Source: a virus
UHGV virus genome: UHGV-0241990
Reading direction: 5' to 3' (one strand)
Length of the DNA: 13,531 nucleotides
Under the pieces are notes generated by a model. It did no database searches. It saw only the letters and a list, made by a program, of their open reading frames with translations, and was not told the DNA's origin. Shown piece after piece: positions 2,492 through 11,602 of this stretch; within the stretch, counting starts at the first letter, position 1; each line of letters opens with the position of its first letter. The translations under genes and the position numbers were made by a program.

Positions 2492-3202
2492 ATGTTTAAG
2501 GGAATTATTGTTACACTATTAGCTTGCATTGTATTTGGTCCATGGGTGTTAGTAATTGCTTTGCCTCTATTACTAGTGATGAGTGTAGGGAAAGATATTA
2601 AAAAGCTGCATGCACAATATAAAGAGCACCCTGGAGCAGTCATAACAAGTCTGGTTATAGTCGCGGGGCTTATTGGCTGGGCCTACTTCTCTCTTCCCAC
2701 AGGAAATACAGCTGCAAATGTGGAAGAGGTGAACTCACAGCATGAAGAAGTGGTTAACGTCTCCGATCTTACATGGGAGGACAGGGTAAAAGCATATAAA
2801 TATATTTATGGTGTGCTAGATTGCGATCTCTCTAAAGATATAGGATGCACAGATAAATACCAGATTCACGCCTGGCTGTGGAATCATGCAGAAAAAGGTG
2901 CTTGCAACCAGATTAAAGTGGCGGTTAACAGTGGGGCACCTACTGGGAAAAATAAAGATGTTCTGACGGTATGGTGCAAGGATGTAAAAGGCAATGATCG
3001 TTGGCTACAGATGCGCCACATGGACGGTGTAAGCATAGAAACTACACGAACGGCTCGATGGTATAACGGTGAACTCGTTCACGAAGCATGGCAGAATAAC
3101 GCCTGGATCACTGAGGGAACACTCCTGAATGTTGATATGGAAGCATTGAAGATGCTTAATGAGATGTACGGTGAAGCCGTAGAAACCTCTCCTATGAAAT
3201 AA
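2492..3202 (+). CDS. membrane-anchored protein, 236 aa (two N-terminal TM helices plus soluble Cys-containing domain)
   Basis: ORF from track. Hydrophobic stretches IIVTLLACIVFGPWVLVIALPLLLV and ITSLVIVAGLIGWAYF, then a ~170-aa hydrophilic domain with several Cys. Followed immediately by a strong terminator. Confidence 0.85.
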   Translation: MFKGIIVTLLACIVFGPWVLVIALPLLLVMSVGKDIKKLHAQYKEHPGAVITSLVIVAGLIGWAYFSLPTGNTAANVEEVNSQHEEVVNVSDLTWEDRVKAYKYIYGVLDCDLSKDIGCTDKYQIHAWLWNHAEKGACNQIKVAVNSGAPTGKNKDVLTVWCKDVKGNDRWLQMRHMDGVSIETTRTARWYNGELVHEAWQNNAWITEGTLLNVDMEALKMLNEMYGEAVETSPMK

Positions 3203-3218
3203 CCACACCAACCCACCA

Positions 3219-3245
3219 GGGGGCCATCACGGCCCCTTTTTTATT
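3219..3245 (+). terminator. rho-independent terminator
   Basis: GGGGCC (3220-3225) / GGCCCC (3231-3236) stem, ATCAC loop, then TTTTTTATTT; 17 nt after the stop of the 236-aa gene. Confidence 0.85.
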
Positions 3246-3248
3246 TAT

Positions 3249-3303
3249 CCCCTATTTAACCCCTATTTAATGGGTATTTAATGCCTATTTATTGATTTAA
3301 TGG
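3249..3303. repeat. five tandem 11-bp units with TATTTAA core
   Basis: cccctatttaa (3249), cccctatttaa (3260), tgggtatttaa (3271), tgcctatttat (3282), tgatttaatgg (3293). Period is one helical turn. Confidence 0.6.
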
Positions 3304-3783
3304 TTTTGGGCATTGTTGACAGTGTAAGAGAGAGGATGTAACCCTTTTTTGCAATACTAATAAAATCAATAGCTTAGCTCAATTGGCCTTTTCTCTATTT
3401 TTGTCAAATTTAACATACCCTCAAAAACTGCAAAATCTGGCTGCAAGATTATCTGCAGCTGGATTTCTTACACCTCAATTTGTAGTATCACCCTGACTAG
3501 TTTGTGCATAAAATGAACAGTTTTTAACATTTCCTATTCACCTGGTAACCACACAAAAAGCTAAAAACGAGGCACAGATAATCTTAGAGGCCTGTTTTCT
3601 TGTTATCACTCTGGGAACGTCGTAGAAGTGATTTTGATGAAAGATGACCTACCCTATTACACCCCCATTTTTTGTTATCACAATTGCATCCTGTGCGGTG
3701 TATGGCTGTGTGCTGAAAGCGGTCTTGGGTGTGGGTGTCAGAAATATCCATTAGCGGTATTAATACCCGTCAGATGTTCGTCT

Positions 3784-3820
3784 GAGGTGCCAGGCAGGCG
3801 CTCCCCCACCTCCCTTTTTT
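3784..3820 (+). terminator. orphan terminator-like hairpin plus T-run in non-coding DNA
   Basis: GAGGTG (3784-3789) pairs CACCTC (3807-3812) with GC-rich inner pairing, followed by CC TTTTTT (3815-3820). No annotated gene upstream on this strand. Confidence 0.4.
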
Positions 3821-4368
3821 CTTCTAACAATTCTCAAATATCACACCACTGCCGACCACGTTGCTATTATGTTAATTCTTAAGCTTTGCTGTATGTTGTG
3901 CACATTATTTATTCAGGTGGCTGTACGTAAATTCTGTGCCCACTGATCATGATTTTTAAATCAGATTTTGTAGTGCGCTTTATTAGTGTAGATAAGATCT
4001 ATTATGTTAAATGCAATTTTCCCAACCCTTCAAATCAATGACTTACATGTAAGCATGCACTAACACCCCACACAGCACATTAGACGTATAGATGGCTATA
4101 TCCCACATTTTTGATTGTTTTGTAGTCATTCCCCTGATCATTTAACCAGTATAGTTTGTTCTCTGTAGACCACAAAACCGGAATTTACATCTGATTAACA
4201 TAATCTGTTAGCATGATCACCATTACCCACACAACAATAACCCCATGCAAGCCTCTTCAGGCAATTTATCGGCGTGTTGGTGTGAACAGTCTTTCATGTT
4301 CTTTATGTATTCATTGTCCTGTGTGAGGGAAGGATGGACTGCCCCAGGGGCCATAGTTATGACACCCG

Positions 4369-4404
4369 GTCAACATAACTGTTGATAAAATCAACGGGTG
4401 TTGA
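4369..4404. promoter_or_regulatory. pair of palindromic operator-like sites TCAACA-N4-TGTTGA and ATCAAC-N4-GTTGAT
   Basis: 4369-4384 TCAACATAACTGTTGA and 4389-4404 ATCAACGGGTGTTGAT share half-site TCAAC / GTTGA; centres 20 bp apart. CCCCAGGGG palindrome at 4341-4349 just upstream. Confidence 0.45.
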
Positions 4405-4525
4405 TCTGCATATTTCCCACACATGAGAGAAAATCAAAGCAAAGAGAGAGGAGAGAGGTTTGCTAGTCAAAATAGGTCAATTGACGGCTAATACAGAGTA
4501 AAAAATCAGATGCAATCACTCCCCC

Positions 4526-4795
4526 ACCTGTTGGGATTTCCTACAACCCCTTTCAGTCATACTCAGGCACCACACCCCGGTAAATATTACCGCACTAACC
4601 TGTAAAGAATTTTCACACCTGTGTGTTTATACAGTCATACTCTCCTGTTTTGCAGTCATTGCACCCATGATACACAGCCCCTAACCTGTCAAAATATTTT
4701 ACTACCCCACCAATAATACGGCCCATACCTGTAAAATATTTTTACTACTACCTGTCAAAATCTTTTACTACTACCTGTAAAAATATTTGACACTA
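4526..4795. repeat. iteron array: ACCTGT-containing ~23-bp repeats with near-palindromic core GT(C)AAAATATTTTAC
   Basis: Well-conserved copies starting near 4598, 4684, 4727, 4750, 4773 (spacings 86, 43, 23, 23 bp). Degenerate ACCTGT/CCTGT copies at 4526, 4617, 4644. Inverted repeat CGGTAAATATTACCG at 4578-4592. Confidence 0.65.
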
Positions 4796-4825
4796 ATAGA
4801 TAAAGTAATAGACCACACAATAGAT

Positions 4826-4859
4826 CCCCCCCTAACCCCCCAGGGGGGAATGGGGAGGG
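4826..4859. repeat. homopolymer C/G tract palindrome (C7-TAA-C6-A-G6-AAT-G4-A-G3)
   Basis: Read directly: ccccccctaaccccccaggggggaatggggaggg. CCCCCC A GGGGGG centred at 4842. Shorter CCCCAGGGG relative at 4341-4349. Confidence 0.5.
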
Positions 4860-5377
4860 ATCAGAGAGTGGGGAAGGTTTTCTAAGGGAAAAGCTTAACC
4901 CACAAATGAAAGCCTAAAGAGCATTAGCGACTCTTTAGGCAATATGTGTGTGGGGGTGACAATGTATTCCATACATGACACGTCACCCAATTGTGTGTGG
5001 GAGTGCCTACGGCACCTTAGCCCATGGCTAAGCCCTTCGGGTCTGTGTGTGGTCCGGCGAATGCGTCAGCATGAGGCCCACATGTGGACCGCTGCCGAAA
5101 GCTTGCCAGCGCCGGAAGGAGGCAGCAAAGAGTCTCCCGCGCGGGTGCACGCACACATATATAAAGGATACACTCATAAATCGAAAATAAGCCCCCTAAA
5201 TGGCCTTCTGGCTGCATTAACTAGTGTGAGTAGTGCAATTGCATTACCTGACCTCTAAATCGCGTTAGAATCGATTTTAGAGCGCTTAAGGCAAAAAGTG
5301 CCCTCCCTTGTGGGCTTGCTTGTGTCTGCTGTGCAGGCTATGGCACCTATAGCACACCTAAATGATAATAATTCTCA

Positions 5378-5406
5378 TTGACAATTGGTTGACAATATGA
5401 TAAGAT
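5378..5406 (+). promoter_or_regulatory. sigma70-like promoter candidate P1 with duplicated TTGACAAT
   Basis: TTGACA 5378-5383, 17-bp spacer, TAAGAT 5401-5406 (4/6). A second TTGACAAT at 5389-5396, 11 bp downstream of the first. Confidence 0.4.
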
Positions 5407-5441
5407 TATAAATAGGGGGAGAAACAGATCCGGAGGTCAAT

Positions 5442-5591
5442 GTGGAAATTACTGATGCAATAGCGATCATCAACCTGGCTGTACTGTGGTGCGGTGTTGC
5501 CTACATAGCCGGAGTAACTGCAATCGACAATCTTGAAGAAAAAATGATAGATAAATACAAAAAGATTGTTGACAATTTGACGAATGTCTGA
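5442..5591 (+). CDS. small GTG-initiated ORF, 49 aa, predicted TM helix (VEITDAIAIINLAVLWCGVAYIAGVTAIDNLEEKMIDKYKKIVDNLTNV)
   Basis: GGAGG at 5432-5436, 5 nt before GTG 5442; stop TGA 5589-5591. Not in track (short, non-ATG start). Protein-like composition, unlike the antisense track ORF 5406..5606. Confidence 0.3.
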   Translation: MEITDAIAIINLAVLWCGVAYIAGVTAIDNLEEKMIDKYKKIVDNLTNV

Positions 5592-5597
5592 TAAAAT
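5569..5597 (+). promoter_or_regulatory. near-consensus sigma70 promoter P2 for the plus-strand operon
   Basis: TTGACA 5569-5574, exactly 17-bp spacer, TAAAAT 5592-5597; predicted start ~5604, giving a ~120-nt leader before ATG 5725. Confidence 0.6.
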
Positions 5598-5724
5598 ATA
5601 AAGCATAGGGTAATTCTCATCATAGTGAATTTCCTTTAGTAGACTGGCGGGGGCTTGTCTTAAGTTCCCGTTTCTTTTTAATCATATATCGCACAGGTTA
5701 GTGAGCTAACAGGAGGCTTATACT

Positions 5725-5940
5725 ATGGCTAAAACCGGACCGATCAGCCAGCTGGTAAACTGGACTACTGACGAAATCGTCGAGAACGTACTTAAGGGGA
5801 ACTTCCGCAAAACTTCCGTTTATGCATTCATTCGTAAACATAAAGGAGAATATCCACACATTGAAGAAGCAATTTTAAAACTAAATTGCATTCGCCTTGA
5901 GCGGGAACTGGCTAAATACACCAATAACATTAATAAATAA
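5725..5940 (+). CDS. hypothetical small protein, 71 aa
   Basis: ORF from track; AGGAGG SD 5711-5716, 8 nt before ATG 5725; first gene downstream of P2. Confidence 0.7.
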   Translation: MAKTGPISQLVNWTTDEIVENVLKGNFRKTSVYAFIRKHKGEYPHIEEAILKLNCIRLERELAKYTNNINK

Positions 5941-5953
5941 TTATGGGGGAATT

Positions 5954-6820
5954 ATGGCAAGTAATTACGGGGAAAATTTTACTCCCCTTTTTAAACGTTT
6001 CATCAAATACATTTTTAAAAATCCGATTGCAAAAACTACAACCAATAAAGAAAGATTTCACTTAAACTTGTTGGAAATGACAATTTACGGTGAGATGGCA
6101 AGTTTTAATGCTGCAGGTTGTGAAATATTTATCTCTGAACAGAGATTAGCAGACGATTATGATGTTTCAAGACCGACAGTTATTAACTCGATTAAATCTC
6201 TAGAAAATGCCGGGCTTATTTCAATAGTTAAAAGTAAAGGCAAATCTAATCATTACAAACTGCTAATTACCCCTGATCAGCTTGGCAAGATGTGTGATGA
6301 GCAGGGTATTAAAACCTCCGACAGTGTGGGATCTAGTAAAGAGGCCCCCGATAATCAACAGGAAGCCCCAAAACAACCCACACAGCAAGCTAAAAAGGCC
6401 GAGGTGGTGCAATTGCCTACCCAACCTAAGAACGAGCGCAGAGAGCGCTTTAGAGACGCTGGCAAACGTGAGAAAGATGAGCACGGTTATCCGATTCTGA
6501 CAAGTGATGAGATGAACGCCAAATACAAAGGGATTCAGGCAACATTTAAGGATCGGAAGAGCATTAAACTCTCTGAATTGCGAGATGCATTTTACGGGCC
6601 GGAGGTGATGGATAAAATTAAAGGCACCGTTGAGGGTAGAATCTGGAAAGAAGATGATTATTGGCATTTAACAGAACAGGCCCTTAAGGTGGCTCAACAT
6701 GTAGCTAAAAGAGGTAAAACAATTATCATCGATTATATTAGTCATGGCTATGATGCCCCGAAAGAAAGATTGTGGAACAACTGCAAGCTTGTAAAAGGCG
6801 AATTAACCATTACAAAATAA
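5954..6820 (+). CDS. winged-HTH DNA-binding protein, candidate replication initiator or iteron-binding regulator, 288 aa
   Basis: Track ORF 5897..6820; start moved to in-frame ATG 5954 (GGGGGA upstream, avoids 44-nt overlap with previous gene). HTH segment ISEQRLADDYDVSRPTVINSIKSLENAGLISIVK, a Q/P/K/E-rich linker, then a distinct C-terminal domain. Lies ~1.2 kb downstream of the iteron array. Confidence 0.8.
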   Translation: MASNYGENFTPLFKRFIKYIFKNPIAKTTTNKERFHLNLLEMTIYGEMASFNAAGCEIFISEQRLADDYDVSRPTVINSIKSLENAGLISIVKSKGKSNHYKLLITPDQLGKMCDEQGIKTSDSVGSSKEAPDNQQEAPKQPTQQAKKAEVVQLPTQPKNERRERFRDAGKREKDEHGYPILTSDEMNAKYKGIQATFKDRKSIKLSELRDAFYGPEVMDKIKGTVEGRIWKEDDYWHLTEQALKVAQHVAKRGKTIIIDYISHGYDAPKERLWNNCKLVKGELTITK

Positions 6821-8793: not shown

Positions 8794-10935
8794 ATGGCAA
8801 TGAAGGAAGTAGCCAGACTAACAAACGTTATTTACTGGGACTCTGATAAATCCTCCTGGCGAAAAGAAGTTAAACGGCTTGAGGATTATAAAAAATCCTG
8901 GAAGAAAGCTACCGACGATATAGCTAAAGCTGATTTTAAATCTAATCAGGCTGTGCTCAGAACACAAAGAACACGCGCTAAGGTGGAAGAGCAGATAGCC
9001 AGAGCTCAGAGGAAACAACAGGAAGCACAGAAGAAACAACGTGCTCAGGCTGTCAGCCGTCTGACCGGGGGCAACAATGCCGAACTTAACTCTATGCGCA
9101 AGTTCTACCAACAACAAGCCAGAGAAGCCGCCAGACAACAAAAACTGTTAGATCGTAGTGTTGGAGATGTTCAGCACAGAAAAGCACGTGTAGGGGCCAA
9201 CAGTGCACGAATCAGCAGCATGTTTGATGGATCCCTGGTTGCTCAGTTCCAAAGCAGAATCCAGAGAGTTAATGCTGATTATGCTAAAGGGGCTATTAAC
9301 CTGCAGACCTATAATCAGAAAATGGCCCGACTCAGAGCTGAAATGAAGATGGCCTCTAGAGATGCCACCACCTTTCAAAGCAAGCTAGATAAACTGGCAG
9401 CAGGTGCGAGCAAGGTGCATAACAATATCGGCAAGCTTAACAGTGCTTTAGGCAAGATAGCCATTGGCCTGACCGCTGCAGGATGGGGTATTCAGAGAGC
9501 TGTTAGTGGTGCTATGAGCGCTCAATCTGACCATAACTCAGCCTATTATGGTTTGCTTGCTCAGAACAAGGATGATAAAGCCAAGACTGACCAGCAGATG
9601 GCTTTTATCGAGAACACAGCCAACACCTACGGGATGGATCAGCGTGAGATGGAGGGTGGCTATATGCGTTTTGCTGCCGCTACTCCCACCATGAAGGAAT
9701 CTGATAAGCAGGCTCTTTTTGAGGCTATGGCGATTAAAGGCCGCTCAGTGGGTGCTACTGGCGAGCAACAGAACAGGGCGCTTGTTGCGGTCCAACAAAT
9801 GGCTTCAAAAGGAAGAGTAGCTGCGGAAGAGCTGCGTGGCCAGCTGTCAGAAGCCTTTGCAGGCTCACAACAGGATTTTCAACAGGCCGCTATTGATGCC
9901 GGAATCATCAAGAGTGCCCAGGAATTCGATAAAGCCATGGCAGATGGCAAAATCACCCTGGACAAGCTTCTTCCCTCTCTAGTGAAAATCTGGGGTGCTG
10001 CAAAAGAAACTGACGCTTTTGCTAAATCTATGCAACAGCCTGAAGTGGCACTGCAGAGAATGAGCAACCAGTTTTTTAAACTAAAGCAATCCTTTATGGG
10101 TGTTGTGGATCCTGCGGATGGCGTCATTACCCTGTCAGAATCCCTTATTTATATCTTTGAAGATTTATCCTCAATTTTCAGTAGCTCAGGTGAAGATGCC
10201 AAATCTCTCGGAGTTATGTTAGGCGAGGCAATGCATGAAATTTATTTTTGGGTCAACTGGGCTTGGTGGTGGACTAAGAAGATCGCCAAAGGCATTGGTG
10301 AGACGTTAGGCTGGACCGCACAGGATGCAGGCGAGAAGATTGGCCAGGTTGTGACCGCCCTGTTAGGCCTGAAGGTTGCAACAAGCATTGCTGGCATGGT
10401 TGGCGGCCTTATTTCCATGCTGTGGAAACTTAAAGCGGCGCTTAGTGCTTTAGTCGGTGTTGGTGATATCAGCACTGGAGGCACAGCAGGCAAAGGCAGA
10501 CCAGGTAGAGGCGGCTTTATCGGGAAAGCAGGCAGACTTGGAGGAAGATTTGCAGGTCCGGCAGGGATTGTTTTGACAGGATTTGACATTGCAAATAGCT
10601 TAGATTCCTACTGGCAGAATCCTGATAATCAGCGGCAGGAAGGAGCTAAACATCCTGAATGGTTAACCAGTATGGTTAATAGTGCTTCTAGCTTCCTTGG
10701 CCTTGATTATCGTCTGGACGCAGGACGCTACATTACCAGACCAACACCAACGGGTGGTATTGCTATTCAGAATGGAGGCTATCAGCCGACTCAAATCAGT
10801 GTAGTTCCGCAGGGTGAGATCTCCGGCAAGTGGGAGATAACCATTGATGAGGGGGGAATTGCCAGGGTGATCCAGAAGGAAGTCAGCGATCAGCTGGATT
10901 GGAAAGCCACACAGGAAGCTAATCAGCTTTTCTAA
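8794..10935 (+). CDS. tape-measure-like protein, 713 aa
   Basis: ORF from track. Long charged Q/K/R/E-rich helical N-terminus; central segment GEQQNRALVAVQQMASKGRVAAEELRGQLSEAFAG resembling the conserved tape-measure domain (recalled). Hydrophobic segments (VVTALLGLKVATSIAGMVGGLISMLW) and a Gly-rich stretch (GGTAGKGRPGRGGFIGKAGRLGGRFAG). Confidence 0.8.
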   Translation: MAMKEVARLTNVIYWDSDKSSWRKEVKRLEDYKKSWKKATDDIAKADFKSNQAVLRTQRTRAKVEEQIARAQRKQQEAQKKQRAQAVSRLTGGNNAELNSMRKFYQQQAREAARQQKLLDRSVGDVQHRKARVGANSARISSMFDGSLVAQFQSRIQRVNADYAKGAINLQTYNQKMARLRAEMKMASRDATTFQSKLDKLAAGASKVHNNIGKLNSALGKIAIGLTAAGWGIQRAVSGAMSAQSDHNSAYYGLLAQNKDDKAKTDQQMAFIENTANTYGMDQREMEGGYMRFAAATPTMKESDKQALFEAMAIKGRSVGATGEQQNRALVAVQQMASKGRVAAEELRGQLSEAFAGSQQDFQQAAIDAGIIKSAQEFDKAMADGKITLDKLLPSLVKIWGAAKETDAFAKSMQQPEVALQRMSNQFFKLKQSFMGVVDPADGVITLSESLIYIFEDLSSIFSSSGEDAKSLGVMLGEAMHEIYFWVNWAWWWTKKIAKGIGETLGWTAQDAGEKIGQVVTALLGLKVATSIAGMVGGLISMLWKLKAALSALVGVGDISTGGTAGKGRPGRGGFIGKAGRLGGRFAGPAGIVLTGFDIANSLDSYWQNPDNQRQEGAKHPEWLTSMVNSASSFLGLDYRLDAGRYITRPTPTGGIAIQNGGYQPTQISVVPQGEISGKWEITIDEGGIARVIQKEVSDQLDWKATQEANQLF

Positions 10936-10980
10936 CTGGTTGATAATAAAAGCCCCTCGGGATTTGTCATCCTTTGGGGC

Positions 10981-10992
10981 TCAACTTCTCGC
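10981..10992 (+). repeat. third copy of the core TCAACTTCTCGC
   Basis: Exact 12-nt match to the core of the 18-nt element at 1944 and 2463; lies just after a hairpin (10953-10981) downstream of the tape-measure-like gene. No start codon at the 11-nt distance. Confidence 0.5.
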
Positions 10993-11389
10993 CTGGCAAG
11001 TGTGATCATCTGCAGAGAGAAAGTCAACTCTCTTTCTGTTCACGTTTGATCATTCATACCGTTTGTTTTATATTCATCAGTGGAAACAGATCCCAGAGGT
11101 TAACGCGACCTCTAAGAGAAAATAAGCGTCTATGATCTGGAGTATCTTGTAGAGCACTGGGCTTGATGCGGCCTCACCCTAACCAAGGTGATAAACAGGC
11201 AAACGTTGGTGGTTCTGCTCTCTTACCCGGCAATAAGTGATAAGCCAAAACTAAGAGATGCCCACACGGTTTCACCGCACCGGAATATAAGCAGGTACCT
11301 GATAAAGCTGATCTACATGAAAACCTGAAAACCCCTAAATGATGCTAGTGTTTCTCCTTACCACCAACACGGCATCAAAAAGAGTTCTA

Positions 11390-11418
11390 TTGTCTGAATT
11401 CAGGATTTTGGCTATAAT
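11390..11418 (+). promoter_or_regulatory. sigma70-like promoter for the 49-aa ORF
   Basis: TTGTCT 11390-11395, 17-bp spacer, perfect TATAAT 11413-11418. Confidence 0.55.
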
Positions 11419-11452
11419 GTAGGCGTAGCAGGTCATAAGAAGGGGTGACACT

Positions 11453-11602
11453 ATGAAGAATGCCAATGCCATTAAGCGAAATAACCGCAAGATTCACGCT
11501 CGCAAGTTTCTCAAGACTGAAGAAGGCCGGAAATGGTTAGAAGAGAAGCAGAAGGAACGGCAGGAGATAAAGCTTGTGCGGGAATTATCCCAGTTTATCT
11601 AA
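11453..11602 (+). CDS. small basic protein, 49 aa (MKNANAIKRNNRKIHARKFLKTEEGRKWLEEKQKERQEIKLVRELSQFI)
   Basis: Not in track (short). AAGGGGTGA SD before ATG 11453; stop TAA 11600-11602. Own promoter and terminator. Confidence 0.6.
   Translation: MKNANAIKRNNRKIHARKFLKTEEGRKWLEEKQKERQEIKLVRELSQFI

Follow-up and report, generated by a model that had tools for sequence, protein, structure and literature searches.

The block of C-runs and G-runs at 4826–4877 is a real and non-random feature, conserved in kind among related plasmids. Judged from its sequence and surroundings, there is about an even chance that the block is a cis-acting structural part of an iteron origin like that of lambda, namely its GC-rich boundary or hairpin element. 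The window, by which we mean the whole stretch of 13,531 nucleotides that was analysed, is essentially one complete circular plasmid of about 13.5 kb. The region 4598–4859 would very probably function as its replication origin. The block lies within a noncoding stretch of 2.2 kb, from about 3203 to 5440. The features of this region are collected in Table 1.

Table 1. Features of the putative origin and of the neighbouring DNA (positions in the window).
Feature	Position	Strand	Remarks
Outlying degenerate iteron (ACCTGTAAAGAATTTTCACACC)	4598–4619	+	Repeat family D5 links 4583–4616 to 4712–4745
Four 22-bp iterons (4684, 4727, 4750, 4773)	4684–4794	+	Repeat family D1, inverted repeats I8 and I10; presumed Rep binding sites
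AT-rich spacer with three phased 12-mers	4795–4830	+	Candidate DNA-unwinding element
TGTGTGG copy inside second 12-mer	4813–4819	-	AT-rich replacement in L003, L006, L007, L010 and L020
GC-rich interrupted palindrome C7-TAA-C6-A-G6-AAT-G4-A-G3	4826–4859		Two-tier hairpin/cruciform possible; block in 20/20 relatives
G-tract cluster (G6, G4, G3, G4, GG)	4843–4877	+	Potential quadruplex (+) / i-motif (-)
Hairpin B (GUGGG..UUUUCU-AAG-GGAAAA..CCCAC)	4868–4903		Predicted fold
Hairpin C (GCCTAAAGAG-9 nt-CTCTTTAGGC)	4912–4940		Terminator-like on - strand, then TTTCATTT
Three TGTGTGG separators (4947, 4994, 5046)	4947–5052	+	Delimit swappable hairpin cassettes right of conserved block
Sigma-70 promoter, consensus-like (TTGACA-17-TAAGAT)	5378–5406	+	Rightward operon leading to rep
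rep, initiator with N-terminal winged helix-turn-helix, O-like/DnaD-like	5954–6820	+	PHROG, Pfam

The C/G-run block and its conservation

As read, the block begins with C7 (4826–4832), TAA, C6 (4836–4841), A (4842) and G6 (4843–4848). It continues with AAT, G4 (4852–4855), A, G3 (4857–4859), ATCAGAGAGT, G4 (4870–4873), AA and GG (4876–4877). An earlier note on this DNA had described it as C7-TAA-C6-A-G6 followed by G-tracts, and both the description and the coordinates match the sequence. The partial palindrome pointed out there was also confirmed. Its symmetry extends further, to the outer arms, where C7 can pair with G4-A-G3 over a 3 × 3 TAA/AAT internal loop. A two-tier hairpin (4826–4859) can be formed in this way, and it is bracketed by GATC at 4823–4826 and 4859–4862.

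The arrangement was compared with shuffled sequences. C6-N-G6 was obtained in none of 1000 dinucleotide-preserving shuffles of the window, and the observed count of two C5+ runs no more than 5 nt apart was reached in 3 of 1000. With both strands of the 13.5 kb window considered, the motif G3+(N1-12) × 4 has a single instance, which is the G-tract cluster. The DNA fold of the two-tier hairpin has an energy of -14.2 kcal/mol, with z = -1.4 against shuffles retaining the CC/GG content, so the hairpin is not better than these. Therefore, it is the run arrangement that is significant, and not an extra stability.

The pattern CCCCWGGGG was searched in the window and gave two matches against 0.07 expected. 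The second match had been taken as a hint of a recurring recognition sequence. It does exist; however, it lies at 4342–4350 rather than at 4341–4349, and 5 of 10 relatives have GCTCCAGGGG or GCTCCATGGG in place of CCCCAGGGG there. The site is thus not conserved, and the idea of a recurring recognition sequence finds no support. Another look-alike of CCCC-A-GGGG at 3203–3223 was discarded as just the left flank of a terminator at 3218–3238.

Twenty relatives, comprising independent isolates and metagenomes, were compared for the block. In all of them (20/20) the 12-mers and the C/G-run block are present and abut the iterons, whichever class the iterons belong to. Among the relatives the first C-run has 5–7 bases, the second C-run 4–7 and the first G-run 4–6, and the spacer between the second C-run and the first G-run is A, AA or AACAA. 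Even between plasmids that are otherwise nearly identical, the length of each run differs by one to three bases. The central dyad shifts accordingly in the forms C6AG6, C7AG5, C6AAG4, C4AAG4 and C5AACAAG6. Despite this moving centre, C-runs followed by G-runs are always retained. The same holds where the surroundings differ most. In L009, unrelated DNA begins directly after GGGGAAGGTTTT, and the block is still retained. In L007 and L010, which have divergent flanks, TAA is changed to TATAAT, the spacer A to AACAA and GGGGAGGG to GGGTGGTG, and the C-runs and then the G-runs remain. A sequencing artefact at homopolymers, which had been named as one finding that would dispose of the feature, was also checked. 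L008, an independent metagenome contig, has run lengths identical to those of the window, and the motif occurs in 20 relatives from separate samples. The version in the window is therefore not an error peculiar to this record.

Since the run lengths vary and the dyad moves while the C-runs and G-runs are kept, the block would have a role in composition or fold-back rather than as an exact site of protein recognition or cleavage. The comparison argues for conservation of composition and pairing potential instead of exact geometry, in a role that would tolerate slippage. On the other hand, the plasmid family is narrow, with a backbone about 94–98% identical, and that the block is conserved is, by itself, weak evidence of a function. 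Relatives could be obtained solely within this narrow E. coli family, which limits the covariation tests accordingly; true compensatory change within the 4826–4859 hairpin was not seen among them.

Some short motifs for host proteins overlap the block. A Dcm site, CCAGG, lies at its centre (4840–4844), GATC is found at both of its ends (4823 and 4859), and GGGGAGGG (4852–4859) matches the FtsK-orienting KOPS consensus GGGNAGGG. None of these Dam, Dcm and KOPS-like sites is kept across all relatives, and they were treated as incidental.

Iterons, 12-mers and initiator of the putative origin

The four main iterons are each internally dyad-symmetric, and the last three are spaced by 23 bp. The last one ends at 4794, and the C/G-run block is 32 bp from it. 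Between them, the stretch 4795–4825 is about 70% A+T and directly adjoins the last iteron. It is built of head-to-tail 12-mers of the form AATAGAY-N5, namely AATAGAT-AAAGT, AATAGAC-CACAC and AATAGAT-CCCCC, the third of which runs into C7. AATAGAY has five sites in the window, and three of them are those at 4795, 4807 and 4819. A 6-mer repeated three times at a 12-nt phase was found in 1 of 1000 shuffles. On the - strand, the 12-mers show 2, 2 and 3 mismatches, head to tail, to the oriC 13-mer GATCTnTTnTTTT. Repeats resembling the 13-mer are known in the unwinding element of iteron plasmid origins (PMC4980987). The 12-mer element is thus a candidate unwinding element, at which the DNA would melt. 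A clear DnaA box adjoining the C/G-run block was not found, and DnaA boxes are not enriched near it. In the cumulative GC skew, the minimum near 4750 is a local one and the global minimum lies near 1750, and the skew does not single out the origin site.

The product of rep was assigned by profile comparison. It matches the PHROG replication-initiation families phrog_270 (4.7e-12) and phrog_186 (4e-9) and the O-like families phrog_678, 391 and 345 (1e-6 to 4e-7). In Pfam it matches HTH_36 at 26 bits, where the cut-off is 25, and also HTH_11. Rep sequences form 103 clusters, from 99% down to 42% identity, and nearly all are found on 13–14 kb contigs of E. coli, Shigella and E. albertii. Rep is hypervariable on these 13–14 kb backbones, which are otherwise about 95% identical. 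L003 and L007 carry an additional truncated rep-like gene upstream of the full-length rep.

The iterons fall into 5–6 sequence classes among the relatives. In 18 of the 18 loci compared, the class of the iterons agrees with that of the Rep helix-turn-helix (recognition helix), even where the remainder of Rep has another history. This match marks the iterons as the presumed binding sites of Rep. The signature is that of an initiator and its binding site evolving together, and the joint change of the helix-turn-helix and the iterons suggests selection for new replication or incompatibility specificities.

Downstream of the block, the segment 5351–5400 around the promoter is 97% identical in 10 of the 10 relatives compared. 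An ORF of 49 aa (5442–5591; WP_157794903.1 in relatives), 96–99% conserved, lies just downstream of the promoter-like site, and it overlaps a second near-consensus promoter-like site at 5569–5597. Neither this ORF nor one of 71 aa (5725–5940) gave a family match.

The iterons on the left of the block and the hairpin cassettes on its right are exchanged freely among the relatives, and the block between them is constant. A block and 12-mers that stay constant amid swapped iterons show the pattern that would be expected of parts working with the host machinery, not with the variable Rep. The following course of events is proposed. The O-like Rep would bind the four or five dyad-symmetric iterons (4598–4794), and the resulting strain would melt the adjoining AT-rich element of three 12-mers (4795–4830). 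The GC-rich block would keep the melting from going further to the right. When the DNA next to it has opened, its C-runs and G-runs could pair in many registers and fold back as a hairpin or cruciform. The fold-back may help to keep the bubble open, or it may mark the entry of the host helicase or priming proteins. We infer such a clamp or hairpin from the position and composition of the block. In chromosomal origins of bacteria, the unwinding element is known to have GC-rich clusters at its flanks (PMC8034659). Of the roles listed in the earlier note, the one in replication fits this context, in which the block adjoins the AT-rich element and the iterons.

On its own, the block is of an ordinary kind, namely a GC-rich palindrome next to the unwinding element of an iteron origin. 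It is valuable as a landmark, which pins the putative origin of an apparently undescribed family of 13–14 kb plasmids. The family also provides a natural swap, in which initiator and iterons have diversified in matched classes and the unwinding element and GC block have stayed fixed. This swap sets the initiator-specific parts of the origin apart from those presumably serving the host machinery, and with mini-replicons it would allow a direct test of what the GC-rich boundary does.

Alternative explanations and neighbouring hairpins

The same hairpin is also terminator-like on the - strand, and this speaks against reading it as an origin boundary. The block may instead be the end of a leftward transcript. 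It would then be an intrinsic terminator shielding the iterons, in which the U-rich copy of the AT-rich element comes after the hairpin. Alternatively, the G-runs of the RNA (G6-UUA-G7) would stay hybridised to the C-runs of the + strand, in an R-loop that activates or primes the origin. We regard this explanation as unlikely, although several observations are in line with it. A terminator scan listed both the block hairpin (4851–4824) and hairpin C (4940–4912, then TTTCATTT) on the - strand. A better U-run is found in the tail of some relatives, UAUCUUUUUAUU in L003, L006 and L020 and UUCUUUUUAUU in L007. Persistent hybrids of G-runs with C-runs have precedents in ColE1 and in mitochondrial CSB II. 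However, the tail in the window, AUCUAUUGUGUGG, is a poor U-tract, and the better U-run of the relatives begins about 4 nt past the stem. T-richness at this place is expected anyway of an unwinding element. A search for a conserved - strand promoter to the right found none, the best candidate (5395–5368) matching 9 of 12 positions. Neither a - strand gene nor an RNA family lies upstream of the terminator-like hairpin.

A second alternative looks beyond the block itself to the strong folding of the DNA on its right. The block, as hairpin A, would then open a structured RNA of the + strand, or a priming signal in single-stranded DNA, in which hairpins A, B and C (4826–4940) lead into the TGTGTGG-separated cassettes. 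Both strands of 4795–5160 fold far better than shuffles (z = -6.5 for + and -5.3 for -), and in a sliding scan of 3150–6000 strong structure was confined to 4750–5030. The apical stem of hairpin B is rebuilt in L010 as TTTTCAT-AGAGAG-ATGAAAA, which is a single compensatory event. Hairpin C keeps its stem in L010 with a new loop, and covariation is abundant in the downstream cassettes. In contrast, hairpin A is without covariation. It is retained in L009, where hairpins B and C are missing and unrelated DNA follows GGTTTT in place of B; hairpin A is therefore independent of B and C. A search of the entire window against Rfam 15 gave no match up to E = 1. A convincing conserved + strand promoter was not found upstream, and its -35 region would fall in the variable iterons. 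We consider it quite improbable that the block belongs to such an RNA or priming signal. The same low probability is given to the wider proposal that the block opens a conserved three-hairpin unit (4826–4940) which, with the cassettes, would form a new modular single-strand element at the origin of a previously undescribed satellite-like plasmid family. If true, the element might supply priming signals that are interchangeable, or an R-loop primer system like that of ColE1/CSB II.

The cassettes deserve a description of their own. They occupy 4947–5150 in the window and the same region in L001–L022, and they are separated by YTGTGTG(TG)GGG. One cassette type is a unit of 41–44 nt with three short hairpins and at least five sequence variants. 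Each of the three stems shows compensatory changes, as in TCAC/GTGA, GTGCC/GGCAC and TGCT/AGCA. The loop sequence is C(TNC)G on the + strand and, correspondingly, C(GNA)G on the - strand. Plasmids differ in how many cassettes they have and in what order, and L010 contains one copy in inverted orientation. One segment downstream resembles the type I-E CRISPR repeat of E. coli, a likeness that was judged by eye to be coincidental.

The heptamer TGTGTGG itself is in large excess, with 19 copies in the window against 1.39 expected, and 19 copies were reached in 0 of 200 shuffles. Thirteen of the 19 are in noncoding DNA, on both strands. The sites include 792, 1478, 1505, 2024, 2081, 3549, 4068, 4227, 4417, 4813, 4947, 4994, 5046 and 5854. 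Those at 1478 and 1505 are inverted with respect to each other, and the latter overlaps a perfect DnaA box (TTATCCACA, 1507–1515). The heptamer may serve as a binding site, or as a signal for recombination or processing. A long-range pairing of CCACACA (4813) with TGTGTGG (4947), which appeared in a predicted fold, was rejected, as the left partner is absent in five relatives.

The block could also be a GC-rich tract that is neutral and prone to slippage, and that would persist solely owing to the youth of the family and to its place between selected elements. Neutrality would agree with run lengths that differ in nearly every relative, with a backbone identity of about 95% throughout and with a fold energy that is not special for the composition. 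Nevertheless, the three most divergent relatives (L007, L009 and L010) retain the arrangement despite changed, inserted or replaced flanks. This arrangement was given by 0 of 1000 shuffles, and long homopolymer runs are expected to decay when unselected. A neutral tract is thus very unlikely.

The earlier note had further proposed that the site can form a cruciform or a quadruplex. The hairpin or cruciform part of this claim stands, since two-tier pairing is possible. The quadruplex part fares worse. A G-tract quadruplex, or a C-tract i-motif, acting as a regulatory or fork-pausing signal would draw on the sole quadruplex-type motif of the window, with tracts present in 18 of 20 relatives. However, its loops are 3, 1 and 10 nt, so that it fits when loops of up to 12 nt are allowed, but not with short loops of up to 7 nt. 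The tracts are broken in L005 (GAGGAGGG) and L010 (GGGTGGTG), and the adjoining complementary C-runs would compete through hairpin or duplex formation. We give such a signal very little credence.

Equally little credence is given to a packaging (cos/pac) or nicking site for packaging of the plasmid into capsids, as variable run lengths and a shifting dyad are unlike a fixed-geometry endonuclease site and the strict coupling of the block is to the iterons. In its favour, a major capsid protein and tail parts are encoded with no recognisable terminase, and some signal would be needed if the plasmid is packaged; cos sites are typically GC-rich and partly symmetric. The shifting central dyad argues in particular against the nicking or restriction-like site that had been suggested. 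Neither the block nor the rest of the noncoding region showed DNA similarity to any of 50,697 phage records; the regions 4300–5400, 4780–4960 and 3200–4700 were searched by megablast and blastn. There was also no sign of genome ends at the block. Therefore, a cos site shared with a known phage could not be shown. For the packaging claim, this is absence of evidence and not disproof.

The plasmid family and likeness to known origins

The close relatives of the plasmid are E. coli plasmids of 13.2–13.7 kb. They were found in 7 of 5426 complete E. coli genomes, always on a plasmid, and many further contigs of 13–14 kb exist in public assemblies of E. coli, Shigella and E. albertii. Proteins encoded by the plasmid include a major capsid protein, whose gene wraps the window ends, tail-completion-like, Dit-like and tape-measure proteins, and small helix-turn-helix proteins. 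Neither a portal nor a terminase was recognised among the genes of the window. From its gene content, the plasmid looks like a phage satellite or a much-reduced phage maintained as a plasmid. The capsid protein gave no tblastn match in the 50,697 phage records and no match in searches of representative genomes, IMG/VR and INPHARED. Scans with exact 21-mers gave none in viral contigs or species-representative genomes and two matches in metagenomes. A literature search by accession and topic found no description of these plasmids, and a tRNA/tmRNA scan of the window found none. The plasmid family, the matched Rep and iteron classes, the excess of TGTGTGG and the covarying triple-hairpin cassettes are all more surprising than the block itself.

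Several other parts of the plasmid were noted. The 1.2 kb stretch 3240–4450 has no ORF of more than 84 aa and no Rfam or phage match. The idea that the noncoding region 3200–4450 is exceptionally conserved was rejected, since its identity is at the backbone level of about 96% and it is not unusually structured. The stretch 3240–4450 contains ATTTAACCCCTAT three times at 3243–3288 and the paired palindromes TCAACATAACTGTTGA and ATCAACGGGTGTTGAT at 4368–4406. These could be partition, packaging or operator sites. Mosaic hypervariable segments lie at 2492–3202 and 10000–11500. The 236-aa gene at 2492–3202 aligns in 1 of 10 relatives, and the others carry a gene of 173–195 aa there. Replacement between relatives also affects the tape-measure gene in its C-terminal part, together with the region that follows the gene. 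In the 30 kb contig L014, aminoglycoside and tetracycline resistance genes stand beside the genes of the element.

Compared with known systems, the block shares with a Rho-independent terminator a GC-rich hairpin followed by a T-rich stretch on the - strand. It differs in a U-tract that is weak or displaced and in having no known upstream gene or promoter. Priming by a persistent hybrid of G-run and C-run is used by ColE1 RNA II and human mitochondrial CSB II, and CSB II is a C7-T-C6 tract with length polymorphism. The likeness consists of G-run and C-run tracts at the region where replication starts. However, ColE1 and CSB II are transcription-primed, without iterons or Rep.

In RK2 oriV, a GC-rich segment borders the AT-rich element. 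As in RK2 oriV and E. coli oriC, the initiator sites here adjoin an unwinding element of 13-mer-like repeats (PMC4980987), and, as in chromosomal origins, a GC-rich segment borders the AT-rich element (PMC8034659). On the other hand, the repeats here are 12-mers rather than 13-mers, clear DnaA boxes do not adjoin the element, and Rep is O/DnaD-like and does not belong to the TrfA/RepE group.

The comparison with phage lambda, whose initiator is O, includes differences as well as likenesses. Here the iterons end at 4794 and rep begins at 5954, which places the putative origin about 1.1 kb upstream of the initiator gene, whereas that of lambda is inside it. The palindrome here is made of homopolymer C- and G-runs and the AT-rich part of three 12-mers. 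A P-like helicase loader was not recognised here, and there is no detectable DNA similarity. In the lambda origin, the AT-rich segment is followed by an inverted repeat of about 28 bp. Four iterons of 18 bp are joined there to a 38-bp AT-rich segment (PMC3349717). The putative origin of the plasmid has the same order of parts, with an O-like Rep by profile match, four main dyad-symmetric iterons, an AT-rich segment of about 35 bp directly after them, and then an inverted repeat of about 30 bp.
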